Shown: positions 7,821-55,314 of the stretch, in pieces
Numbering within the stretch: the first letter of the stretch is position 1
How the letters are laid out: each line of letters begins with the position of its first letter
Virus record (IMG/VR): IMGVR_UViG_2693429668_000006
DNA length: 64,000 nt
Reading direction: 5' to 3' (one strand)
From: a virus
Taxonomy: Duplodnaviria > Heunggongvirae > Uroviricota > Caudoviricetes
Made by a program: the position numbers and the translations under genes
The notes under the pieces: generated by a model
Database searches by the model: none
The model's input: the letters and a program-made list of their open reading frames with translations, nothing else
What the model was told of the DNA's origin: nothing

Positions 7821-8877
7821 GAATTAAAACCTCGTCCCATTTGAAATCATCCAACTCTGACCATTCATGAGGGAAAATAACGACCGGATCTGAATGCTCT
7901 GGAGCCTGTCGTTTCATTAGCTCACACACACCTTCCATGTGGTTGTTGTACAAATGCACGTCAAAGCCAAAATGCACAAATGCACCGGCCATGTGACCCG
8001 TAATCTTCGCGAGAAAATGAGTGAGAATGCCATAGCCAGCAATATTGAATGGCATACCAACAAAAGTGTCTACGCTACGCTGTACGAGGCAGGAGTTGAG
8101 GATGCGTTTGGGGATTCCAAGTTCATCCAGTTCAGCTTCAGTAACACTGCCGTCCATCTCCAGATCGTATAGCATCTTGGTGTAGATAGACTCGTAACCG
8201 AGGCGACTGTGTTGAAGACCAATGTCAGTTGCCATCGTTAAACGGGTTTCAAAATCCAGCTCACGACTCCACAAAGAGAAGACAAAGTGGCAAGGTGGCA
8301 GTTTCATATCCTCAAGCTCGCCTACGTTCCATGCGTTAAGCATGATGCGACGATCGGTAGGGTTCGTGCGCAGTGTATCGACAATACGCTGTAGCTGATC
8401 GATTTCACGGGACAGCACTACGCGATCTTCACTGATACCCAGGTATCCCTCGACTTTGTACCCGCGTTCACGGAAAGTAGCGATCTTGCTCAGATATTCA
8501 CTATGGCTCACGATGCGGGTATCTTCCCATCGACGCCACTGCTTACCGTAAACCGGCCCCAAATCGCCATTCTCATCGGCCCATGCATCCCAAATCTTAA
8601 CGCCGTTATCCTTGAGAAATTGGATGTTGCCCGTGCCTTTCAGATACCACTCAAGTTCGACAAGTAGTGGCTTAAGATTTACCGCCTTTCCAGAAATAAG
8701 CGGCACAGTCCCACCAGTAAGCATGTAGTAAGAGGGAACGTAGCAGGTGCTTAAAGTACCAGTGCCTGTGCGATCATCAGCCTGCACGCCGCTTTTAAGC
8801 ACCGTCTCAATAACTTTTGCATACGATGCGTTTGTTACCTGACCGTTCGTATGCTCTCGATTCAAAAGGAGTGACAC
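7774..8877 (-). CDS. thyA: thymidylate synthase (GTG start, ~100-aa insertion relative to E. coli ThyA)
   Basis: DRTGTGT, GDLGPVYGKQWR, LPPCH active-site motifs; GAGG RBS before GTG at 8877. Confidence 0.85.
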   Translation of the reverse strand: MSLLLNREHTNGQVTNASYAKVIETVLKSGVQADDRTGTGTLSTCYVPSYYMLTGGTVPLISGKAVNLKPLLVELEWYLKGTGNIQFLKDNGVKIWDAWADENGDLGPVYGKQWRRWEDTRIVSHSEYLSKIATFRERGYKVEGYLGISEDRVVLSREIDQLQRIVDTLRTNPTDRRIMLNAWNVGELEDMKLPPCHFVFSLWSRELDFETRLTMATDIGLQHSRLGYESIYTKMLYDLEMDGSVTEAELDELGIPKRILNSCLVQRSVDTFVGMPFNIAGYGILTHFLAKITGHMAGAFVHFGFDVHLYNNHMEGVCELMKRQAPEHSDPVVIFPHEWSELDDFKWDEVLILGYDPLPWIKVPVAV

Positions 8878-8890
8878 AAAAACCTCACAA

Positions 8891-8913
8891 AGATAAGTAA
8901 TTACTTATTCATC
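8891..8913 (-). promoter_or_regulatory. class-A palindromic motif AGATAAGTAATTACTTATTCATC
   Basis: immediately upstream of thyA RBS. Confidence 0.45.
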
Positions 8914-8954
8914 GTGTGAGTTTACATTCATTGAGAGAACAAGACCAGACAGAT

Positions 8955-8980
8955 AAAAAAATGGTGGCCATAGGCCACCA
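8955..8980 (-). terminator. rho-independent terminator (minus strand)
   Basis: hairpin TGGTGGCC-ATA-GGCCACCA followed on minus strand by T7 run. Confidence 0.6.
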
Positions 8981-9047
8981 AAACGAATAGTCATTCCAGA
9001 GTTTTATTACGCATGTTAAATATACACAGATAGATAACTACCTACAA

Positions 9048-38651: not shown

Positions 38652-39038
38652 ATGTCTGATAACAAGATTGAATTTATAGAAAGTCGCTACGCTGCTTTTA
38701 TCGCAGGGTTGATTGAATCCTCACCTATGAGCCAGGCCCAGATAGCCAAAACAATTGGGTATAAAAACGCCAACAACCTTTCTTTAATTAAAAGCGGCAA
38801 AATTCCTTTGCCTATCGATAAGGTTCGTCCGCTGGCGCTGGCACTGGGCATTGAGCCAAGTCGTCTTATGATGATGGTGCTGGAAGAACGCCAACCCGAA
38901 CTCGCAGCATTTTTATACAAAGAAGGCACTGCTCCTCTTAACGAGGACGAAAAACAGGTTCTTGCTGCATATAACGAGCGATTCGGTAAAGAGAAAGGCG
39001 CATCACAAAAGGTTGTTGAGGCCATAAAGTCTCTATGA
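38652..39038 (+). CDS. HTH DNA-binding regulator (XRE-like)
   Basis: helix-turn-helix segment SQAQIAKTIGYKNANNLSLIKSGK. Confidence 0.5.
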   Translation: MSDNKIEFIESRYAAFIAGLIESSPMSQAQIAKTIGYKNANNLSLIKSGKIPLPIDKVRPLALALGIEPSRLMMMVLEERQPELAAFLYKEGTAPLNEDEKQVLAAYNERFGKEKGASQKVVEAIKSL

Positions 39039-40136
39039 AAAATTTACACGAATAAGCTCTGTTGATAGACGATCTCCCTTAAATTTGTGGTCAATTTCGT
39101 CTAAATCCGGTTGCTCTACGATTGATGCGATGTACGTCGAGAAACTTTCTAAGGCGTCTCGCATCTCGTCCATATAATCGTGCCGGTCGTAGACCCGATC
39201 TATCCCCTCAAGACTGTGGTTCATGATTTTACGTGATACCTCCTGGCTTATGCCTAATGCTGGGAAGTAACTACGCGCAGTACGGCGCAAATCTCGGGGT
39301 GTAAATGGCTCAAGCTCCATCAGTTCTGGTCGTTCCAGAATACGACGTAATGCCTGGGCTATTGCCACTTTAGACATAGGAAGGTCTTTCCCGATTTTTT
39401 TATTCGAAGGCACGAGCCACTGGCTGTCTTTACCATATTCGAACAACTCTTCAATACAAGTGCGCATTAATGAGCTTAAAGGCAGAGAATGCTCACGGGC
39501 AGATTTGTTCCTCTTGCCTTGATTCCAAACCCCACGCTTAAGATTGAACTCACTTTTTTTAGCCCGCAGTACTTCGTCAGGTCGTCTTGCGGATACAAGA
39601 CATAGCCTGGCCGCCCATTTTGTACCAGCGCACACATTGAAGTAGTCCCATATATTCCAGAACACCCATACCTCTGCGTCGGTCAGCTTCCGCTCGCGAG
39701 GTGTGGGCTTTGCGCCACCGGCAACTTTGTTAAGTGACATATCGTTTAACGGTGACACGTCTATCATCCCCTGGAAGGCGCACCAGCTAAGGAACTGCTT
39801 CATCAGAGAGAAAACGCGGCGGCCCATAACAATTTTGCCATCCAGTATTAGTGGGTTGACCAGTTGGTTCACCATGAACCTATTAATGTCACTTACTTTT
39901 ACATCGGCAATGTGCGGCAAAACATGTATCAAAATACAATGAACAGCGATCTCTGGCCGACGTCTGGTTATCAGCAGAGATAAGCGAGTGAATAACATGA
40001 ATGCGTCCGAGAATCTCATGTCATTGCTGACCTGGGAGATCATAACGGCCTGCATTTGAGATGCTCTTTCGAGATACTCTATCGCCTCTTTTGAGGTGTT
40101 CTCCGCAGCGCGTGCTCTGTCAAAGCTATTTTTCAT
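39033..40136 (-). CDS. tyrosine recombinase / integrase family protein
   Basis: C-terminal catalytic region TPRDLRRTARSY (box II) and NHSLEGIDRVYDRH (His...Tyr); ARRPDEV box I-like. Confidence 0.65.
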   Translation of the reverse strand: MKNSFDRARAAENTSKEAIEYLERASQMQAVMISQVSNDMRFSDAFMLFTRLSLLITRRRPEIAVHCILIHVLPHIADVKVSDINRFMVNQLVNPLILDGKIVMGRRVFSLMKQFLSWCAFQGMIDVSPLNDMSLNKVAGGAKPTPRERKLTDAEVWVFWNIWDYFNVCAGTKWAARLCLVSARRPDEVLRAKKSEFNLKRGVWNQGKRNKSAREHSLPLSSLMRTCIEELFEYGKDSQWLVPSNKKIGKDLPMSKVAIAQALRRILERPELMELEPFTPRDLRRTARSYFPALGISQEVSRKIMNHSLEGIDRVYDRHDYMDEMRDALESFSTYIASIVEQPDLDEIDHKFKGDRLSTELIRVNFS

Positions 40137-40731: not shown

Positions 40732-42060
40732 ATGCAACTAACAATGGTAAGTACGAGAGCATACATGCCTGTTTTTATTTCTGTTGCAATTCTAATGTTT
40801 TCCATAATAATTTTGTTTTTAGGTTTACTACTTGAGCCATTTCAAGATTGGAAGGTTACAGACCAAATTGCTGTATTGAGTAGTTTTATAACGACAGCGG
40901 CTTTTTGTGCAACAGCGTGGAACGCCTATGAAGCAAGAAAAAGTGCAAAGGCAGCACTGGAGGCCGTTAGGATAACTACCGATTCATTGATTGAGATGAG
41001 AAAAAATTCTTTCAAAGAATGGTTTGACACTTTATTAAATCAGCATGATGAGTTGTACAATAATGTCATACCAATCATTGAACAGACAAAAAAACAATTT
41101 AATAAAAATGAAATGCATTCGTTTTTTTATCCATTGGTAAGAAAGCATGAGGTTATTCAGTACATAAAACATATTACCAATATATTAGTCTATGTAGATA
41201 ACCGATTTTACATAGATGGAAATTGTTTTGATGAAAAAATGGAATATATTATTCAATTGAGTGGAAAAATACCACCGCAAATGAAGTTGGTTATTGCAGT
41301 TTTTGGATTGGACATCGATTCTCGTGAACCGCTGGATTCAAAAAAACTGTATGCTTTATTAAATAAATATGATTTTTTCAAAGATGAAATATTCTTTGAT
41401 GATGCTTATTCAAGCATGCCTGAAGTAGAGCTATTTATAAAGGATAGATTTGATAAAATATTTAAAACCAAGATGTTAAAATACTTTTGGAACGTGATTA
41501 AGGAATATTATTCTCAAGTTGAAGTCAAAGAAATCTGGGTGGTTCGTCGTCCGCAAGTTGCTTCATCGGTATTAATGAACTACCAAACACCATTATCTGG
41601 TTTAATTGATGATTATTTTAAAAATTTGCCAAATGAGGTAAAGAGCATTTTTGATGAAGCACTAAAAAAAGCTAATGATAGTGTTACGTCTATTGATGAC
41701 TATATTCATCGTTTGATCGGTTGCAGAGTCGCGTCGATTTCAGAGCATGTCCATTTCGAAAGTGAAATACTGAGTAGTGAAAAGGATGTGAAGGATATGA
41801 TTAAAAATTACATAGAGCAAAGAAAAACTGGAAAAAATGCGGTAAATCTTGGGCAGTTATATTTCTCGAGTGAGTCAGATGTAATTACAGGTGATCAGTT
41901 GAGTGATGCGATCGATGAATATGAGAAAAAGTTGGCACTTATGGCAATAAACGATAATGATGATAGTGATAACCTATTGTGCCATATCTATATTAAATCA
42001 TGTGAGATAGTTGATGAATATAAGCGTGAAACATTAAAATTGGGCGAGTACGCACAATAG
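40732..42060 (+). CDS. AT-rich membrane-anchored hypothetical protein (442 aa)
   Basis: N-terminal TM helix (and possible second), large K/E/D-rich soluble domain, markedly AT-rich codon usage, opposite strand to backbone. Confidence 0.55.
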   Translation: MQLTMVSTRAYMPVFISVAILMFSIIILFLGLLLEPFQDWKVTDQIAVLSSFITTAAFCATAWNAYEARKSAKAALEAVRITTDSLIEMRKNSFKEWFDTLLNQHDELYNNVIPIIEQTKKQFNKNEMHSFFYPLVRKHEVIQYIKHITNILVYVDNRFYIDGNCFDEKMEYIIQLSGKIPPQMKLVIAVFGLDIDSREPLDSKKLYALLNKYDFFKDEIFFDDAYSSMPEVELFIKDRFDKIFKTKMLKYFWNVIKEYYSQVEVKEIWVVRRPQVASSVLMNYQTPLSGLIDDYFKNLPNEVKSIFDEALKKANDSVTSIDDYIHRLIGCRVASISEHVHFESEILSSEKDVKDMIKNYIEQRKTGKNAVNLGQLYFSSESDVITGDQLSDAIDEYEKKLALMAINDNDDSDNLLCHIYIKSCEIVDEYKRETLKLGEYAQ

Positions 42061-45387: not shown

Positions 45388-46710
45388 TCATTCTTTATCT
45401 CCGATTCGATCTTCTGTATCGCGTAAGCAACGCGGCCATTTCAGTCGTGGGTGGCGTAAGCTGCCGTCCGGTGTTTTCTCGTGACAATGAACCTCAACAA
45501 TACGACCACGGTACTTCTCTTTGTTGTTCCAGATCTCGTCCAGATATTTATGCTTAATGCCGCTCGCACGAACAATCACACCGTTTTCAAGGCGAATAAC
45601 AATTTTTCCAAGCGTGTTGGCAAAACCAGAGTCCGGGTCGCCCGACTCAAAGTCGATAATTTCACCATCTTCTGAATCTTCGTCTTTTAACTTCCACCAG
45701 CTGCGGGTACGTTTAAACTCGTAAACAGAGTTCGGATCTTTGCCCATCTCCCCTTCTTCGTTATCGTCAAGGCGTTTCATGAAGCGTTCGATGAAGTCTT
45801 CGTGGCTATGGATGATATAGAACGGATGCAGGTGAATGTCTTGTGTGTAGCCTTCACTGCGATCGTTTTTGAACAACGCCACGAGAATAGCCAGGCGCTC
45901 TTTCAGCTTCATACCTGTCTTTGCATACTCTTTGGATTTAGCCTGTGCCCGCCATTCCGGTAGGAAGAAGTCGAAAACATGATAAATAGCGCCAATTGCC
46001 TGCACGTTCTTTTTGCGCAATGCAGATACGGACTGGTTAAATGAACCGGCTGTTCCTTCACCATCGAAGAAGATGTGTTTGTGGCCTGAAAGTTTGCCTA
46101 ATTCGAGCATTGCTGGCTTTAGGTGATCGAGAGACGTGATTGGATTACCAGTACGAGAAAGGAAGTTAACCTCTTCCTCGTCAACAATAACCTCGCAAAT
46201 TACTCGCAAACCATCGAGCTTAAGACTGCCAATCATCGGCCATTTTGCTTTAGGGTTTGGCTTGAAGGGGTATTTGTCGCCTTTTTCTTTATACGGTGAC
46301 GCCAGCTGCACCTCGAATTTCGGAATGGGATTTTCAAAAACCTTGTTGCATAGGCTAATCCCAACACCCGCTTTCGGGTCTTTTAAGAGGAAACGACGGA
46401 ACACGTCCTGCCCATCGGCGCACATTGACGCCACGATAGACTCAACAGCAGCTATTGCTGCGTTCCCCGTCAGCTCGCGAGAGGCCAGCTTATTCAGTAC
46501 ATCAATGGCTTTTTCGTCACTTGGGACGGACTCACTAAGCGGCTCTGCCACTTTGTATTTCTTTACCCCAAAACGGATGAAAGGGTTGAGCATCAATGAA
46601 ACCATGCTTTGTTCAAAGTCATCCATGTTGGCCAATGCCTCTTTTTTTGCATTGGTTCCCATAGCTTTCATTTCGTCCAGCTTATGCTTAAGTGCGATCA
46701 ACTTTTTCAT
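45388..46710 (-). CDS. ATP-dependent DNA ligase
   Basis: adenylation motif I KLDGLR; 440 aa. Confidence 0.8.
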   Translation of the reverse strand: MKKLIALKHKLDEMKAMGTNAKKEALANMDDFEQSMVSLMLNPFIRFGVKKYKVAEPLSESVPSDEKAIDVLNKLASRELTGNAAIAAVESIVASMCADGQDVFRRFLLKDPKAGVGISLCNKVFENPIPKFEVQLASPYKEKGDKYPFKPNPKAKWPMIGSLKLDGLRVICEVIVDEEEVNFLSRTGNPITSLDHLKPAMLELGKLSGHKHIFFDGEGTAGSFNQSVSALRKKNVQAIGAIYHVFDFFLPEWRAQAKSKEYAKTGMKLKERLAILVALFKNDRSEGYTQDIHLHPFYIIHSHEDFIERFMKRLDDNEEGEMGKDPNSVYEFKRTRSWWKLKDEDSEDGEIIDFESGDPDSGFANTLGKIVIRLENGVIVRASGIKHKYLDEIWNNKEKYRGRIVEVHCHEKTPDGSLRHPRLKWPRCLRDTEDRIGDKE

Positions 46711-47244: not shown

Positions 47245-48027
47245 TTACCAACTTCCCCAGCTAATCATCTTGCGCTGATCGCTTTCTAAGCGATAGGGGG
47301 CAAGAAGCTCTGTGACATGATTGGTGGCGTATGATTTGGCCTCTTGCTCTATCATCGGTAATTCGTTAGCAATCCTGACCATCTTCCCAGCAAATTCCGC
47401 CATTACGCCATCACACGCCTTACCCGCATCAACAATGATATGCACAAGATCCAACTGGCTTTTGCACATGTCCCAAAGAGTCGAATATTCGCTCTCCCTG
47501 ATTAGGTTTACAGCATCATTAGCCCCTTTATTAATCAAAACCTCCAACAGATTTGTCGGGGTGACGAAATCGGCTTTCAGAGACAATGTTGGTTCAGCTT
47601 TTACCGACAGCAAGTAATCTTCAAAGTTTTGCTTGTCTTCCAGCAAAGCTAAACTACGCATAGCTCGAATTGATTCTCGAATAACGGCTTCAATATGTTC
47701 GTCACCTGGAGGACAGATAATGGTATCTGTATAGATGACTCTGCCATCAAACCACGCCCCAACCTGCACTTTTAGAGTTCGTAAGTTTTCTTTGCGTACA
47801 AAAACAACTAATGCAGAACGTCGTGCATGTGCAGGTTCGCCCCATACGCACAACTTAACCTTCAGATAAGGTAGCCCCGGTAGAGGGATCTCGACCAAAC
47901 GAGTGGCGATATGATCCATTGCCGTATTGACGGCTTTTTCAATGATGTCTAGCCGATTGCTCTCGCTGATTTCTAAACCAGTTTTATCAATGATGTTGCA
48001 GGCTAATCTCTTAATTTCTTCTTTCAT
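47245..48027 (-). CDS. hypothetical protein (260 aa)
   Basis: ORF track; class-A motif upstream. Confidence 0.5.
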   Translation of the reverse strand: MKEEIKRLACNIIDKTGLEISESNRLDIIEKAVNTAMDHIATRLVEIPLPGLPYLKVKLCVWGEPAHARRSALVVFVRKENLRTLKVQVGAWFDGRVIYTDTIICPPGDEHIEAVIRESIRAMRSLALLEDKQNFEDYLLSVKAEPTLSLKADFVTPTNLLEVLINKGANDAVNLIRESEYSTLWDMCKSQLDLVHIIVDAGKACDGVMAEFAGKMVRIANELPMIEQEAKSYATNHVTELLAPYRLESDQRKMISWGSW

Positions 48028-48068
48028 ACCAACTCCTAGCTAACGGATGAAAGTATTCTTACAAAAAC

Positions 48069-48089
48069 TTAAGTATGTATCTACTTATC
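48069..48089 (-). promoter_or_regulatory. class-A palindromic motif TTAAGTATGTATCTACTTATC
   Basis: upstream of gene starting at 48027. Confidence 0.4.
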
Positions 48090-48152
48090 ATTTTAGGTGC
48101 AATAGTTCTTTATACTAAGATGCCGGGCATATCCTCAGCCCAGCATTCACCT

Positions 48153-48566
48153 TTAATGAGCTACAGCCTCACTGTTGCACATCTTTCTGTAGACCTGCTT
48201 ATAACGCTGTAAATCATGAGGATCATTAGGTGCCAACGACTTCGATAGGATTTTGTATACCACCCCTTTTGAAAACATGCCCTTTGGCTTCATTTCGAGT
48301 TCAACAACATATGAGTGATAGCCCACGTATGCACCAAAGCCATTTTTGGCGTTTAATTCACCACACACAAAGCCTGTCACACTCCCATCATCATGATCAG
48401 TCCTGACAAACTTATCTTTCCTAAACATCACCGACGTGGGATCTTTCATATCATCCGCAATTGCCTGTTGGCCCAGAGTAATAGCCTTCTCGTCTGTAGG
48501 CTTACACCCAACTAATGCAAACAACGACAATAAAGCACCTGTTAAAATCAACTTCTTTTTGCGCAT
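48153..48566 (-). CDS. lipoprotein (137 aa)
   Basis: signal peptide with lipobox LVGC. Confidence 0.5.
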   Translation of the reverse strand: MRKKKLILTGALLSLFALVGCKPTDEKAITLGQQAIADDMKDPTSVMFRKDKFVRTDHDDGSVTGFVCGELNAKNGFGAYVGYHSYVVELEMKPKGMFSKGVVYKILSKSLAPNDPHDLQRYKQVYRKMCNSEAVAH

Positions 48567-48793
48567 TTTGACTTCCCTTTATTTATATTTATCGTAGGTA
48601 TTAGTTAACCAAAACACGAGCCGTGTCACAATAATTCCATAGCTCATTATTTCCATCAGTGATTAATATCACATCAACTTTACAGTTCATAAATTATCAA
48701 AGCTGACAGATTAACTAAATTTAAGTACCCTTTTCGCACACTTGACGCTTGCCGCGTCTAAACTGTTCATCCTATATCAACAGAACATAAAAT

Positions 48794-50047
48794 ATGAAAC
48801 TCATAAAACCTTCATCGTTGCTGGCATTAGCTTTGCTTTTCGGCCCTGGATACGTTAACGCAGATAATAAACAAACGCTGATCGACGCCGCCACCGCAGG
48901 AGATACCACAGCACAAAGTGCGTTAGGGACAAATTATTTGGATGGGGCTAATGGCTTTGATGAGGATTTAGTAGAGGCCAAGAAGTGGATCGATCTCGCC
49001 GCAGAAAAGGGAGATAAAGTAGCATATTATGCGCTTGGGGTTATGTACACAATTGGGAAGGGAGTAGATAAAGATCTAAATAAGGCCGTTGAGTACTACA
49101 AACTAGCAGGAAATGCTCGCAACGGCAGTGCTTACCATAATCTTGCCGTTATATACGAACGAGGTTGGACTGGAAAGGAGGACCCAGAAGCTGCTTTAAA
49201 ATATCACAAACTAGCAGTAGAAGCTGGTGATATACCTTCGCTTGCCTATATGGGATATTTATATCAATACGGTAAGGGAGTTCCGAAAGATTACAAGAAA
49301 GCATTTAAATCTTATAAAAAGGCTGCGGATAGTGGAAATGCCGCAGGAATGTATGGGCTAGGCTCTATGTACGACGATGGTGTTGCTGTTAAGCGCAACA
49401 ATAAAGAGGCAATTAAGTGGTACTTGAAAGCAGCTGAATTAGGAAATAATAACGCCATGAGCGCGCTTGGATACAAGTTGATGCATGGAGAAGGTATAAA
49501 AAAAGACTATTCGAAGGCCAGAAGTCTTTTAGAACAAGCAATCAGCTTAGGAAATGATTATGCCATGAACCACCTTGGTTACATGTATCTTAAGGGATTG
49601 GGCGTCAAACAGGATTATCGGAAAGCATCAGAGCTTTACCAAGCTGCTTGCGATAAAGATGACGAAACGGGCTGCGAAAACGTTGCTGCAATGAAAGCAA
49701 AAGGTACGTTCCGTTCGCCTTCAAAACAGCAAAATGCCAAATCTGACACTCAGCGACTTATTGCTAAATCCATTGATAAAGGCGTTAACGCAACATTTAC
49801 CTGGCAGGGTGATGATGCCGTCTTCACCGCTAATGATGGCAAAGTTGACTGCACCTTCTTGAAGGATTTTTCAGAGAAAGGAGGCAATCTGGCTACCTCG
49901 TTTGTTTGCACCGATAACGTTCAAATCATCCTGAAGCAATTCAGAGATACCAAGAATGCCTACCTCGCGGTAATGACTGACAACTTCAACACAGAAGTTA
50001 AATCATTTTCGGTCAATGTTTACGTGACTAATACTGGTTCAAACTAA
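48794..50047 (+). CDS. secreted Sel1-repeat (TPR-like) protein
   Basis: signal peptide; tandem ~36-aa Sel1-like repeats (A..LG.MY..G.GV.KD...A..WY.KAA). Confidence 0.65.
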   Translation: MKLIKPSSLLALALLFGPGYVNADNKQTLIDAATAGDTTAQSALGTNYLDGANGFDEDLVEAKKWIDLAAEKGDKVAYYALGVMYTIGKGVDKDLNKAVEYYKLAGNARNGSAYHNLAVIYERGWTGKEDPEAALKYHKLAVEAGDIPSLAYMGYLYQYGKGVPKDYKKAFKSYKKAADSGNAAGMYGLGSMYDDGVAVKRNNKEAIKWYLKAAELGNNNAMSALGYKLMHGEGIKKDYSKARSLLEQAISLGNDYAMNHLGYMYLKGLGVKQDYRKASELYQAACDKDDETGCENVAAMKAKGTFRSPSKQQNAKSDTQRLIAKSIDKGVNATFTWQGDDAVFTANDGKVDCTFLKDFSEKGGNLATSFVCTDNVQIILKQFRDTKNAYLAVMTDNFNTEVKSFSVNVYVTNTGSN

Positions 50048-51220
50048 TGCTGCTATACCTTTTACCTTGCTTAAAAGTTCAAGCTGTCGTGAGTAAGGTT
50101 TTGCGCAATAGTAGGCTTTGATAATCTGCCCCGGTGTCGCATCGCCGGGGTCGAGTCCTTCCTCGCCCAAACACGCAACTTTGACATTAAGACCAATACT
50201 GGTCAGTCGCCTGGCTGCGGCCATCGTGTTTCGTATAGCTTGCTTTTCACTATCCCACATCATGATCACATTACGTAATCCACGCGCCTTGAGCGTCAGG
50301 AACGCGCCCAACTGATCTTCTGCATCCTGAGTGGTGTTGCCAGATAGATGCATCCCGAACGTTCCTATTGGCTCCACGTAATCACGTAATGTTTCTTCGT
50401 CGAAAATAGCTCGTTTGACCCCCATAACATCGAACGCACCCTCACAGACAACTACAGTCTGTTTGCCGACTGCATTATGGCCGTTGTAGAGAAATTTACC
50501 TGAAGCTGGAAGCTGCATAGGAAAGAGGTAGCGGCGTTCTGCTGTACCGGTAATGTCTCGTCCCTGAAATGTCTTCATTACCCCATCCAGATCGTAAACC
50601 GGTATCAGTATTCGCATATCGAATATCTGCCCTTTTACCTGATCTGTATACGGATCTACATAAGCGTGCTTGCCTTCGACGCAGTATCGTAGGTCAAAAT
50701 ACTTTGCCATTTCAGGTGATATGTTTCGTTCAACCAGATAGTCTGGAAGACGGCCATCTATAGGAAGCTCGTAATGACGAGGGAGTGCAACTGGCCCCTC
50801 TAACTCGACTGTGCTTGCAAGCACTAGCTCTTCTTTCTTTGGTGTCCACCCCTGGGAAAGAAGAGCGTTCTGCACATATTCCTCGAACTGTCGTCGTGAT
50901 TTACCGCTGTAGTGCTTGAGGAAGACCAGCTTATTGAACTGAATCTCTTCGGGATGATCACCAGCGAAGCATTTGCCGACGCCACTGGTCAGATTGAAAT
51001 ATACCTTCCAGTTGGAGCTGCCGCATACCGGACACTCTTTGATATTCACTTCACGACCGCGAGCACTCACGCCTCCACGTCGATAAACGATACCTTCAGT
51101 ATCCAACCATTGTTCAAAATCTAATTCGGCAATTAGCTCTTTCAGCTCGCTCACGATAATTCCACTTTTAACAGGCAATATTGTGACCAACCTAAATGTT
51201 GATATAACATAAAGGCTCAT
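50039..51220 (-). CDS. DnaG-like DNA primase (zinc finger + TOPRIM)
   Basis: zinc-binding CPVCGSSNW...GKCFAGDH; TOPRIM VVVCEGAFDVMG / MWDSEK; ATG at 51220 with conserved initiation context. Confidence 0.7.
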   Translation of the reverse strand: MSLYVISTFRLVTILPVKSGIIVSELKELIAELDFEQWLDTEGIVYRRGGVSARGREVNIKECPVCGSSNWKVYFNLTSGVGKCFAGDHPEEIQFNKLVFLKHYSGKSRRQFEEYVQNALLSQGWTPKKEELVLASTVELEGPVALPRHYELPIDGRLPDYLVERNISPEMAKYFDLRYCVEGKHAYVDPYTDQVKGQIFDMRILIPVYDLDGVMKTFQGRDITGTAERRYLFPMQLPASGKFLYNGHNAVGKQTVVVCEGAFDVMGVKRAIFDEETLRDYVEPIGTFGMHLSGNTTQDAEDQLGAFLTLKARGLRNVIMMWDSEKQAIRNTMAAARRLTSIGLNVKVACLGEEGLDPGDATPGQIIKAYYCAKPYSRQLELLSKVKGIAALV

Positions 51221-51301
51221 GTGTTTTTCTTTTGTGGTTTGGCAAAAGAAAAGTTGTTTCACCAATGAATCAAGCGTGGAGGTGTTCTCCACGCTTATTT
51301 T

Positions 51302-52642
51302 TTAGGTAACGTCTAAGATTCGCTCAATGAAGCGCATTTGTTCGAGGTTTTGTTTAACGCGAATGCTGATCCCTCCCTGCTGGTTACGTGAACCGGCAAA
51401 GTAGAGACGAGCCTCTCCTTTCGCTTCTTCTTCTTCGGTTTTGTTGATCGTTATTACCAGGTCAGCAATACGTACTTTTTCGATGTTGTCGGCAGCGTGC
51501 ATCATTGTGGCAACTTCTGACGCGCCACCTTCACGGTTTGTCTGCGATGCCGTGATCCCAGCAACGTTATGCTTGTCATAAAGAGCACGTAAATCGGTGT
51601 AGATACTACGAATGTTGGCGCGATCATCACGAAGGTCATAACTGGCACGCATCAAATCTGCGTAGTCGACAACAACCATGTCAGGCACCATGCCGTTGGC
51701 TTTCATGCTGTTAAGCATACGGTCCAGATCTGCCGGTGACATACTTCCTGACGGACGCTCAACAACCCACAAACTACCAATCCCCTTAGAGGCTCCCAAC
51801 TCTGCCAACTTACGATGAACTTCATCGCGCCGTTCCACCAACTTGGACATTTCCGTCTCCGACAATCTTGCATCAAAACGGTCGGACAAAATGTTGGTGT
51901 GAACCTCCAGCGAGAGATACAGAACATTGTAGCCAGCAAGCGTTGCGTTTATGGAAAACTCGCCCATTGCGGTCGATTTACCGGATTTAGCGAACCCCAT
52001 GAAGAGCACCATTTCGCGCTTTGCCCAGCCTTTTTGGTACAGCAACCTATCGAGAAGAGGGAGTCCAGTTGTAATACTGTTTGGTACATACTCCTCTGAA
52101 GCCTCATATTCACGCGCTTTCAATCGCTCACTTGCGGAGGTGTAGTAGTCATAGATTCCGGTCGCTTCGTTCGATCCAATCTGCTGAACCTTGGCCATGA
52201 TTGCCATCGCCCCCTGAAAGTCGCCCTTCTCTTTCAGTTCAGCAGCCTTAATCAGAGCATCATCAAACGCTACGCTTTTTGCGAAGGTTGATACCTGGTC
52301 AACCATGTACGAGGTATCGGACAATTTTTCTGCAAGGATGCGCTTAAACGCAACAACAACATCGGCGAATAGTTCCTCACGGATAGTCTTATCGCGTTTC
52401 GCACGCTTAAGCATATCCAGAATTGCAGATGAAGAGGGCGCGCTCTTGTACATACGGTAATAGCCCGAAACCATATTAACCAATATGGCATTGGCCGCAT
52501 TGGCAAATTGGCTAGGCACAACCAGATCTCCCGCACGAGTAAGAAACTCGTGATCACGACAAAAATATGCCGTCAGTCTGTTCTGGAAATCTTCATCAAA
52601 CTCTTCGGACAGCCCGCGTCCTGTATGGCAAAGTTCGGTCAT
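51302..52642 (-). CDS. DnaB-family replicative helicase
   Basis: Walker A GFAKSGKST, RecA-like C-terminal domain, 446 aa. Confidence 0.75.
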   Translation of the reverse strand: MTELCHTGRGLSEEFDEDFQNRLTAYFCRDHEFLTRAGDLVVPSQFANAANAILVNMVSGYYRMYKSAPSSSAILDMLKRAKRDKTIREELFADVVVAFKRILAEKLSDTSYMVDQVSTFAKSVAFDDALIKAAELKEKGDFQGAMAIMAKVQQIGSNEATGIYDYYTSASERLKAREYEASEEYVPNSITTGLPLLDRLLYQKGWAKREMVLFMGFAKSGKSTAMGEFSINATLAGYNVLYLSLEVHTNILSDRFDARLSETEMSKLVERRDEVHRKLAELGASKGIGSLWVVERPSGSMSPADLDRMLNSMKANGMVPDMVVVDYADLMRASYDLRDDRANIRSIYTDLRALYDKHNVAGITASQTNREGGASEVATMMHAADNIEKVRIADLVITINKTEEEEAKGEARLYFAGSRNQQGGISIRVKQNLEQMRFIERILDVT

Positions 52643-53607: not shown

Positions 53608-55314
53608 TTAATGATTGAGTATTTTATTAACACGCAGCTTATTAAGTGTTGATTTTGAAGCAACTTCCTCCAAAGCTTCTATTGCTTTATCAGTGATGCT
53701 CTTCTGTTCGTCTGTCGGGTGTTGCATACCCTTGAACTTGAGCATAGTCTCTTCTACTAAATTCAAAGCATCCTGATCACAGGATAATATCCAGTTTACG
53801 TAATCATCTTTAGAAAAACTGTTAAGAATATTCACATCACTATGGTTAAATCTTCCACCAGCTATTTTTTTTATAATTTTATCTAAGTTATAGTCATCTG
53901 GATTTCTATCTTTCAATTTTTTTTCAATTCTGAAACCTAATTCTTCATTTCCGAAGATCTCTACTCGCAAAGAATTAAATGTAGCATACGCATTGTCTTT
54001 ATTAACAAAAGCATCTGCATATGCCTCTATAATATTATTACAATCTCTATCCAATTTGATTAGGACATTTATTAAACCTACGAACTGTCCAATTGGTATA
54101 CGCAACAGACTATCGTTAATTACGCGCTCAATTTGAAAAATAAACTCTGATTCATTATCTTTAAAAGAGTTTCTAAAAACATCCCAAATTTTATAAACCT
54201 CACATAAAACCCTATTATCTCTATATTGTTCATTTTTTTCTTTTATTATATTTAGAATATTGCTTTCAGAAGACACATAACCGTTCTTAAGGTAAAAATC
54301 TATATCATCATCGAAAGCACTTTCTGCTCGTTCATAAATAATATCAAGGCTATTAACAAATGAATATACAGAGTTAACTTCTTCCTTTTCATCTTTATCA
54401 TCTAACATATAGTCGAATGCATGTATATTTTTGATTGACTCCTTAAATGAAGCATAATCAACGCTAGGAACACCAAAATAGTAAACCACTGAAAATAAGA
54501 CCAATCTATTAATAAAACTTTCTCTAACCTTATCCTCTGCTAACTTTAGCACATCTCTAAATATAACTAGAGATGATTTTATTTTATTTAATATTCTAAT
54601 GTTTTTGATGTTTAAATCATTTGCTAGGTTTTTTAACAAAAGAAAATCAGGGTCAGTCTCATAAAAAACTTTTCTTAAGTTTTTCTCAGGCGTGGGATCG
54701 TATTTTATTTCCACATCAATTATTTTTTCTCTATACTCTAAAAACTGTTGTTGTGCAGTTTCTTCATGTAAGTTATCTTCATTTAATATTAGAACAACCT
54801 TGCAATTTTTTCTTCTTGCCAACTCATCAATTACCCCCATAATCTCTTTAATTTCTAGCGCACTACCTTTTCGTTCAATATCATCAATGCAAACCAAATA
54901 ATTATTAACAAATTTATACTCAAGAGATGACAGCAGATTATCAGTTTTGAACCCAAAAAAATCGTTCTTTCCAAAATGTATTAAAAATTTTGACAAGGAG
55001 TTGTATTTCAACCATCCCCAAAACCCATTTCTATAACGAATCATAGTTCGATCCGTTTCAGATAAAATCAGTTCTTTATATTTCTTTTCATTAATTGGTG
55101 TGGCACAATGATAAAGAGCTTTTTTAATGTCTCCAATAGAATTTATTCCAAACAAAGAAACATATGAATATGCATTAAAATCTAATTTTTTAGAATGTTT
55201 AGTATAAAAGCTATTCCAATAATGCGTTTTACCTACTCCCCAATTTCCTTTTATGACAGCAACCCGATGATCTGAGTCCAAAAAATTTTTTAAAAATACT
55301 TCTATCGATTCCAT
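53608..55314 (-). CDS. KAP-family-like P-loop NTPase (568 aa), AT-rich accessory gene
   Basis: Walker A GNWGVGKT (GxWGxGK[ST]), Walker B LVCIDDIERK (hhhhDD[LI][DE]R); strongly AT-rich. Confidence 0.55.
   Translation of the reverse strand: MESIEVFLKNFLDSDHRVAVIKGNWGVGKTHYWNSFYTKHSKKLDFNAYSYVSLFGINSIGDIKKALYHCATPINEKKYKELILSETDRTMIRYRNGFWGWLKYNSLSKFLIHFGKNDFFGFKTDNLLSSLEYKFVNNYLVCIDDIERKGSALEIKEIMGVIDELARRKNCKVVLILNEDNLHEETAQQQFLEYREKIIDVEIKYDPTPEKNLRKVFYETDPDFLLLKNLANDLNIKNIRILNKIKSSLVIFRDVLKLAEDKVRESFINRLVLFSVVYYFGVPSVDYASFKESIKNIHAFDYMLDDKDEKEEVNSVYSFVNSLDIIYERAESAFDDDIDFYLKNGYVSSESNILNIIKEKNEQYRDNRVLCEVYKIWDVFRNSFKDNESEFIFQIERVINDSLLRIPIGQFVGLINVLIKLDRDCNNIIEAYADAFVNKDNAYATFNSLRVEIFGNEELGFRIEKKLKDRNPDDYNLDKIIKKIAGGRFNHSDVNILNSFSKDDYVNWILSCDQDALNLVEETMLKFKGMQHPTDEQKSITDKAIEALEEVASKSTLNKLRVNKILNH

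Follow-up and report, generated by a model that had tools for sequence, protein, structure and literature searches.

The window studied here, a stretch of 64,000 nucleotides from IMG/VR virus record IMGVR_UViG_2693429668_000006, is judged from its sequence to be an SSU5-like phage-plasmid of Escherichia coli and carries on the plus strand, at 48794..50047, a complete gene for a protein of 417 amino acids (aa) plus stop, with an ATG start codon in the six-frame open reading frame (ORF) list. The gene is labelled in databases as 'tetratricopeptide/Sel1 repeat protein' and belongs to phrog_8741 (E = 1.8e-199), a family recorded there as of unknown function. Its product combines a predicted signal peptide, a solenoid of seven Sel1 repeats and a C-terminal β-barrel, and sequence comparison shows that what the family keeps constant is the barrel rather than the Sel1 repeats. 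For the temperate phages that carry it, of which there are at least three kinds, the gene is an optional accessory. New in this work is the association of a Sel1 array with an unclassified and very narrowly distributed β-barrel core, together with near-exclusive carriage by phages and a mosaic population structure; no mention of the Sel1/β-barrel gene was found in the phage-plasmid survey literature. Two points, the barrel as conserved core and the adjacent lipoprotein gene as a separable second module, go beyond the first-pass annotation of this DNA.

The N-terminus of the protein (MKLIKPSSLLALALLFGPGYVNA, followed after the predicted cut by DNK) shows an n-region with two Lys, a hydrophobic core (aa 6-17, Kyte-Doolittle about 2.1) and V-N-A in positions -3 to -1. 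By classical rules (hydropathy and the -3/-1 rule) and by comparison with the N-termini of 11 homologues, the signal peptide was assigned to aa 1-23 (48794..48862, +), with a predicted signal peptidase I cut after VNA. An equivalent N-terminus was found in 11 of 11 diverse family members, and the protein has no second hydrophobic segment. The protein is predicted to be exported by a Sec-type route, in agreement with the first-pass annotation, which had noticed the signal peptide. In some orthologues (L042, 7059-8300; L020, 7041-8300) a Cys directly follows the hydrophobic core (LSVGC, LLGC), which could make lipoproteins of them rather than soluble proteins of the periplasm; a Cys of this kind is missing from the window protein.

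The Sel1 solenoid spans aa 24-303 (48863..49702, +) and was delimited by Pfam and AlphaFold2. Pfam PF08238 matches the protein in seven stretches with 185.5 bits against a cutoff of 30.7 (E = 5.4e-56), so that the at least seven repeats noticed in the first-pass annotation are recovered by the hidden Markov model (HMM). The full-length AlphaFold2 model, for which an alignment of 15 family sequences was the input, places 16 helices within aa 26-303 at a predicted score in the local distance difference test (pLDDT) of >90, corresponding to seven helix pairs with one capping helix at either end (N-cap and C-cap). The solenoid also contains the invariant pair Cys286/Cys294. On these grounds the protein is a genuine member of the Sel1-repeat proteins. 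Neither Pfam nor a sequence search of the PDB revealed a catalytic domain.

Between solenoid and barrel lies a variable linker (aa 304-320, 49703..49753, +), with a mean pairwise identity of 31% and pLDDT <50 for aa 311-331. The C-terminal domain (aa 321-417, 49754..50044, +) is β-rich and of low confidence in the full-length model; modelled as a domain on its own (aa about 321-412) it forms an all-β barrel of eight strands with pLDDT 88 and a predicted template modelling score (pTM) of 0.78. The distinct C-terminal domain of the first-pass annotation is in this way given a fold and, by the variable linker, a border. Six of the eight strands are just 6-7 residues long, the C-terminus is variable and non-aromatic, and the domain contains the invariant pair Cys353/Cys372. 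Because of these three properties we read the modelled domain as a soluble and not a membrane barrel, and for the same reasons an outer-membrane β-barrel anchor of the OmpA/OmpX-like type or of TPR-porin fusions such as BcsC/PgaA, for which membrane-spanning strands of about 10 residues or more and an aromatic β-signal at the C-terminus would be expected, was judged unlikely. Cys286, Cys294, Cys353 and Cys372 are invariant across 11 diverse members and are placed as two likely disulfide pairs, and the barrel is probably disulfide-bonded.

Across these same 11 diverse members the barrel reaches a mean pairwise identity of 74% and single repeats 45-63%, the linker being the least conserved part. 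Relatives of the barrel outside the family are few. No Pfam family matches it at E <= 0.1. An exhaustive phmmer search of 1.84 billion representative proteins returned nine barrel clusters, of which seven are the phrog_8741 family itself, as full-length proteins or fragments, and two are spurious short matches to immunoglobulin-like repeats; a profile search for more distant relatives added nothing new. When the barrel was compared with structure predictions for viral proteins, uncharacterised small proteins of phages came out best (Mt1B1_P17, template modelling (TM) score 0.74), together with one phage protein annotated 'putative lysozyme inhibitor'.

The setting of the gene was defined by comparison with related phages. 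A 5-kb query around it matched the Escherichia phages PhiR41_1 (97%), Cyrano and CMS-2020a and the Salmonella phage SSU5 (80%), all deposited as phages, over ~60% of its length. In pairwise BLAST the homology with PhiR41_1 stops at window position 48088 and restarts at 50064, and the 1,975 bp in between (48089..50063), composed of the lipoprotein gene, a spacer and the Sel1 gene, stand in place of ~39 bp of PhiR41_1 (L001), where the phrog_4248 gene abuts the primase gene. This insert is absent from all four phages. Its G+C content (GC) is 0.416 against 0.446 and 0.477 in the flanks, a modest difference, and no direct repeats of >=6 bp were found at its boundaries.

In the plasmid database PLSDB the primase-helicase backbone occurs in 402 records, and 92 records carry the cassette. 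Among 5,426 complete Escherichia coli genomes, 253 have the backbone and 61 of these (~24%) also the cassette. The barrel segment matched at 62 places in the same genomes, all 62 on plasmids and none on a chromosome. Loss and decay of the gene are also seen: plasmid pLR-62-2_1 fuses window position 48234 to 49909 by a 1.67-kb internal deletion, an E. fergusonii plasmid (P0002) is left with a truncated barrel ORF of 97 aa, and the copy of Leclercia adecarboxylata (L021) is a fragmented pseudogene. The deletion scar (L016, NZ_AP027577.1, 2501-2790), in which ~135 bp from the 3' end of the lipoprotein gene meet the final ~139 bp of the Sel1 gene, means that the cassette was lost secondarily in an SSU5-like lineage of 83% identity residing within a 214-kb IncFIB/IncHI1B record.

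The barrel is very rare, with five loci among 185,579 species-representative genomes (one per species), against 24 IMG/VR viral contigs, a contrast that speaks for a moron. Most SSU5-like contigs of E. coli carry the lipoprotein and Sel1 genes together. At this site the SSU5-like contigs L027-29, the more distant L043/L044 and an Enterobacter element (L006) have only the Sel1 gene, and the lipoprotein gene is missing beside it in L027-29, L043-44, L004, L005, L007 and all non-SSU5 contexts. An obligate pair of the two genes is ruled out by the Sel1-only SSU5-like contigs and the non-SSU5 contexts, and since several SSU5-like contigs have Sel1 alone, the lipoprotein gene counts as a second accessory module that can be separated from the first. 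In a myovirus (L042) the Sel1 gene lies between the tail sheath/tube genes and the tail chaperone/tape-measure genes, and in L007, L008, L022 and L045-47 it follows a tail-fibre gene at the prophage edge, with host genes adjacent. All copies in non-SSU5 phage contexts score on phrog_8741, and no partner gene common to all contexts was found. Several unrelated phage contexts without a shared partner are the signature of a horizontally mobile moron, and on the sequence comparisons the distribution strongly supports this designation. The first-pass annotation had proposed a moron as a possibility; to this can now be put a sharply bounded insert missing from the closest phages and present in roughly a quarter of backbone-carrying E. 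coli, homologues in two unrelated phage backbones at sites usual for morons, a lower GC and the opposite orientation, the gene being neither universal nor structural.

A few copies are chromosomal or probably so. One is found in Pantoea, and in Pseudenterobacter timonensis (L004, 5768-13894) an orthologue lies between CdiA-type filamentous-haemagglutinin fragments. The latter locus is a polymorphic-toxin and mobile-DNA island; it also holds a gene with a NERD domain and an insertion sequence (IS) element, and one of the CdiA fragments has PT-VENN and DUF6862 and is accompanied by a likely immunity gene of 127 aa. Two large, probably chromosomal contigs suggest past integration of SSU5-like DNA: L018 (5001-5549) has a barrel-only ORF of 123 aa and a 61-aa ORF in the position of the primase, between genes of the trp/ompW region, and L019 (7038-8813, Escherichia whittamii) has a full-length copy beside a primase fragment. 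In L007 a second, unrelated Sel1-repeat protein of 311 aa (8047-8982) is encoded ~0.8 kb downstream of the prophage homologue, with one small ORF in between; it is without signal peptide and has a Cys-rich C-terminal motif and a hydrophobic tail.

Comparison of alleles showed that diversity is concentrated in the central repeats. Sliding identity against pYLPM7a, a plasmid otherwise 98-100% identical to the window, drops at about 49030-49730, and the allelic mosaic region was set to aa 106-316 (49109..49741, +). The central repeats are 47-68% identical at nucleotide level, the lipoprotein gene 99-100% and the barrel-coding part 98-99%. Relative to pYLPM7a the window allele has one extra 36-aa Sel1 repeat (aa 224-259, 49463..49570, +), which alignments show in this copy and in other genera and which is missing in the commonest E. 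coli allele (381 aa). The family has five, six or seven repeats, the seven-repeat form being common to other genera. By the Nei-Gojobori method on nine alleles, the window centre differs from every 381-aa allele with proportions of synonymous (pS) and nonsynonymous (pN) differences of 0.79-0.82 and 0.26-0.29 respectively. The ratio ω of nonsynonymous to synonymous change is 0-0.43 among alleles in all regions, 0.09-0.43 among closer alleles and 0-0.19 in the barrel. Diversifying selection on the central repeats was rejected, given the synonymous saturation (pS about 0.8) and the low ω among closer alleles. One locus, L010, combines the 5' end of the window allele with the centre of L002. Region-specific kinship and synonymous saturation thus make the 'hypervariable island' a product not of rapid positive selection but of alleles that diverged long ago, are held under purifying selection and have recombined with each other. 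The gene is real, intact and functional. Because it is intact, under purifying selection and present in three phage backbones, it probably gives lysogens a conditional advantage related to the envelope.

The export signal and the four invariant cysteines point to a location in the envelope. For the possible host-envelope modulator put forward in the first-pass annotation this placement stands, and the designation is plausible. As to the function, we tentatively favour, at somewhat less than an even chance, a protective neutralisation in which the periplasmic protein captures or blocks an incoming protein that acts on the envelope. After Sec export and cleavage of the signal peptide the protein would reside in the periplasm and would act purely by binding another protein, a mode suggested by the lack of a catalytic domain in the Pfam and PDB searches. 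The ligand may be an incoming effector of a type VI secretion system (T6SS), a bacteriocin, a lysozyme-type enzyme or the entry or lysis protein of a superinfecting phage; with the last of these the proposal overlaps with superinfection exclusion. The conserved barrel would provide a constant contact and the exchangeable Sel1 repeats a variable one, and the outcome would be that cells carrying the phage-plasmid are shielded, the moron benefiting the lysogen.

This reading is favoured because Sel1 proteins serve as T6SS immunity proteins, because the structural neighbours of the barrel include periplasmic enzyme inhibitors and an immunity protein, because recognition repeats that are shuffled around an unchanging module would suit a ligand that varies, and because a gene carried by phages and often lost is in keeping with a benefit under certain conditions only. 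The Klebsiella protein Sel1E is by experiment a T6SS immunity protein, with PA5087 as structural template (PMC7108748). Among the structural neighbours of the barrel are the periplasmic lysozyme inhibitors PliC (scores 8.2 and 8.1), MliC (7.5) and PhiA (7.4) and the T6SS immunity protein BtaiB, to which the phage protein annotated as a putative lysozyme inhibitor can be added. The orthologue amid CdiA toxin fragments in Pseudenterobacter also speaks for neutralisation. A more far-reaching version, which we regard as doubtful, is that phrog_8741 constitutes a phage-spread 'portable periplasmic immunity', in which temperate phages and phage-plasmids of Enterobacteriaceae would use a constant, hitherto undescribed β-barrel inhibitor module and an exchangeable Sel1 array to shield their lysogens against a weapon acting in the periplasm (a T6SS effector, bacteriocin, lysozyme or phage lysin, for example), and alleles and repeat number would track the variation of that weapon.

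Several results weigh seriously against neutralisation. No target or cognate toxin gene adjoins the Sel1 gene in the SSU5-like, myovirus and siphovirus contexts. The structural resemblances of the barrel are at fold level only, with 7-18% identity (2-18% over all matches, outer-membrane barrels and avidins included), and equally good scores go to OmpA-like barrels, to avidins and to domains of unknown function; a profile search found no PDB chain related to it by sequence, and the lysozyme-inhibitor motifs SGxxY and SxSGAxY are absent. EsiB, LceB, LpnE and HcpC all come closer to the solenoid than do PA5086-88, which are T6SS immunity proteins. No positive selection was seen among the nine alleles by the Nei-Gojobori method, and an arms race is thus not demonstrated. 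The repeated loss or decay in L016, L021 and P0002 implies that any benefit is conditional. As to expression, no clear Shine-Dalgarno sequence was found ahead of the ATG, and the single promoter-like site (48568-48595, +) matches in 9 of 12 positions, such counts being at chance level.

The tests applied place the protein in none of the families EsiB, Tli5/Sel1E, ExoR/AlgK/MotX/MerG and MliC/PliC. The T6SS Sel1 immunity proteins, Klebsiella Sel1E and P. aeruginosa PA5086-PA5088 (PDB 5JKP, 6LCH, 5JJO), are likewise solenoids, and neutralise an envelope toxin by binding, the same mode as proposed here. Their similarity to the window protein is that of Sel1 proteins in general (31 bits for 5JKP against 192 for EsiB; Foldseek E = 2.6e-5, ranks 37-49). 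They have no reported β-barrel, Sel1E having an unmodelled C-terminal extension (PMC7108748), and their genes adjoin effector genes, in distinction to the phage copies of phrog_8741, which have no effector neighbour, CdiA fragments being near the Pseudenterobacter copy only. Membership in the Tli5/PA5086-88/Sel1E group is not supported, there being neither an effector neighbour in the phage contexts nor a specific sequence relationship beyond the general Sel1 consensus. PliC and MliC share with the barrel domain export and an eight-stranded antiparallel β-barrel of about 100 residues. Identity of PliC/MliC, PhiA, ACP and BtaiB to the barrel is 7-14%, and these proteins are stand-alone or lipid-anchored, whereas the window barrel is fused to a solenoid. 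Membership in MliC/PliC (PF09864) was rejected at the level of sequence, there being no Pfam match at E <= 0.1, no PDB sequence match and neither SxSGAxY nor the SGxxY-type motif characteristic of these lysozyme inhibitors. The domains of unknown function DUF4251 (PDB 4GDZ, Bacteroides) and DUF1842 (8T0B) show no sequence-level relationship to the barrel and are not fused to Sel1 repeats. With respect to genomic placement the gene resembles the classical phage morons lambda Bor and Lom, T5 Llp and phi80 Cor, which are optional, independently oriented genes for exported envelope proteins and have their place where conserved modules meet or behind tail genes. Their products, lipoproteins or proteins of the outer membrane whose phenotypes are known, differ in this from the presumably soluble two-module binder of the window and have no sequence or fold relationship to it.

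Other explanations have to be weighed against neutralisation. Periplasmic proteins of Sel1 or tetratricopeptide repeat (TPR) type are commonly adaptors or inhibitors of envelope machinery, as are ExoR, AlgK and MotX, and the window protein could by these precedents be a modulator of the host's own envelope machinery, binding a peptidoglycan hydrolase or lytic transglycosylase, the periplasmic domain of a sensor kinase in the manner of ExoR, or a component of outer-membrane assembly or export, and thereby altering the physiology of the envelope to the advantage of the phage-plasmid. The highly conserved barrel would fit a conserved host partner, the lipoprotein gene is usually found beside the Sel1 gene in E. 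coli elements, and the NCBIfam models of the named families give weak matches. These matches are all far under the cutoffs (ExoR 35 against 450 bits, AlgK 51 against 700, MotX 50 against 330, MerG 60 against 350), by which the named Sel1 equivalog families were rejected, the Sel1 gene can do without the lipoprotein, and a conserved host partner leaves the persistence of deeply diverged central-repeat alleles unexplained; we hold this explanation to be unlikely, if credible. The best match of the solenoid, with 192 bits, about 35% identity across about 280 residues and a Foldseek E = 4e-16, is EsiB/c5321 of uropathogenic E. coli CFT073 (PDB 4BWR), another exported multi-repeat Sel1 solenoid of E. 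coli with a strain-variable gene. EsiB is surface-exposed and binds secretory immunoglobulin A (SIgA) (PMC3735183), an EsiB-like protein encoded on a plasmid of A. baumannii binds immunoglobulins via vesicles (PMC13524772), and the carrier plasmids have gut and clinical E. coli as hosts, all of which would suit an EsiB/ImbA-like host-interaction factor located at the surface or on outer-membrane vesicles, binding for example SIgA and acting in colonisation or immune evasion by lysogenic conversion. EsiB itself is exclusively chromosomal (PMC13524772), has more Sel1 repeats (a chain of 467 residues) and is without the C-terminal β-barrel, which is the conserved part of the family studied here. 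Its mapped SIgA-binding peptide 244-VLFSQSAEQGNSIAQFR-260 is not conserved, with 5 of 17 residues identical and Ser at E251, so that membership among EsiB-type SIgA binders was rejected; moreover aa 244-259 of the aligned segment (aa 244-260) lie within the repeat that is missing in the commonest allele. Likeness among Sel1 proteins is mostly repeat consensus, and no route through the outer membrane is evident. We consider a host-interaction factor of this type rather improbable.

A dedicated superinfection-exclusion factor, acting maybe with the lipoprotein and blocking DNA entry of related phages, would agree with carriers that are almost exclusively temperate phages and with the tail genes that adjoin the Sel1 gene in two backbones. 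Periplasmic or lipoprotein exclusion factors are known from phages, including T4 Sp and Imm, T5 Llp and phi80 Cor. A receptor-specific block is difficult to reconcile with the finding that one and the same conserved barrel serves three phage types, whose tails, and presumably receptors, are different, and the PADLOC defence library returned a single spurious match of 18 bits, on which a known defence system was rejected; the probability of a dedicated exclusion factor appears to us low. A structural or replication component of the phage-plasmid would be suggested by the site inside the ligase-primase-helicase block and by the conserved overlap with the primase gene. This role was refuted by the absence of the gene from PhiR41_1, Cyrano, CMS-2020a and SSU5, which have the same backbone; the gene is also missing in about three quarters of the backbone-positive E. 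coli genomes, the protein is predicted to be exported and other phages carry the gene at unrelated positions, and we attach a negligible probability to it.

The neighbouring genes are those of a replication block, as the first-pass annotation had stated; the name is correct because Pfam and PHROGs identify an ATP-dependent ligase (45388-46710), a primase (phrog_47, 50039-51292, -) and a DnaB-type helicase (51302-52642). The Sel1 gene is on the plus strand and both the lipoprotein and primase genes are on the minus strand, also as described. The lipoprotein gene (48153-48566, -) encodes 137 aa with the signal MRKKKLILTGALLSLFALVGC and the lipobox LVGC, and belongs to phrog_2320; SEN4 and SEN5, two Salmonella phages with genomes of 33.5 kb, have homologues of 48% identity, phages that infect Acinetobacter, Pseudomonas and Paracoccus show weaker matches to the N-terminal part, and no Pfam, NCBIfam or PDB match was found. 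It is divergent from the Sel1 gene across an AT-rich intergenic spacer of 227 bp (48567..48793, GC 0.33), the presumed promoter region. The Sel1 and primase genes are convergent and overlap by 9 bp at their 3' ends (50039..50047). The overlap is repeated in E. coli and Enterobacter elements (L002, L003, L006) and in the chromosomal remnant L018. As no terminator was found between the Sel1 gene and the primase overlap, either transcript would enter the other gene antisense. Positions 47900-50300 of the window contain five terminator-like hairpins against 1.9 ± 1.3 in shuffles, one of which (49899-49881, -) is located ~140 nt beyond the primase stop, within the antisense of the barrel-coding region.

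Two further regions of the window stand out. At 53608-55314 (-) a 568-aa P-loop NTPase of the KAP family is encoded in a stretch of very low GC (0.285); in PADLOC it matches PDC-S49, a candidate defence family (E = 2e-21); PhiR41_1 holds a different gene in this place (L001, 8778-9545), and the site, near the replication block, looks like a second accessory hotspot. A tyrosine recombinase gene (Phage_integrase, 39033-40136) adjoins a 442-aa ORF (40732-42060) of GC about 0.31; neither Pfam nor PADLOC gave a match for it or for two smaller ORFs.

SSU5-like phage-plasmids are common in E. coli, and surveillance has looked at them mainly for resistance genes, other cargo being largely ignored. A Sel1 moron as such will be no surprise to specialists; the barrel and its partner are a tractable experimental question. 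The barrel has no family assignment and almost no relatives beyond the phage-borne Sel1 fusions, and a new function for a domain would be defined once its partner is identified. Should the protein instead turn out to bind immunoglobulins or to serve as an adhesin, it would represent a new lysogenic-conversion factor, and if the protective reading is true it would form part of a phage-carried layer of interbacterial or anti-phage defence in gut Enterobacteriaceae.

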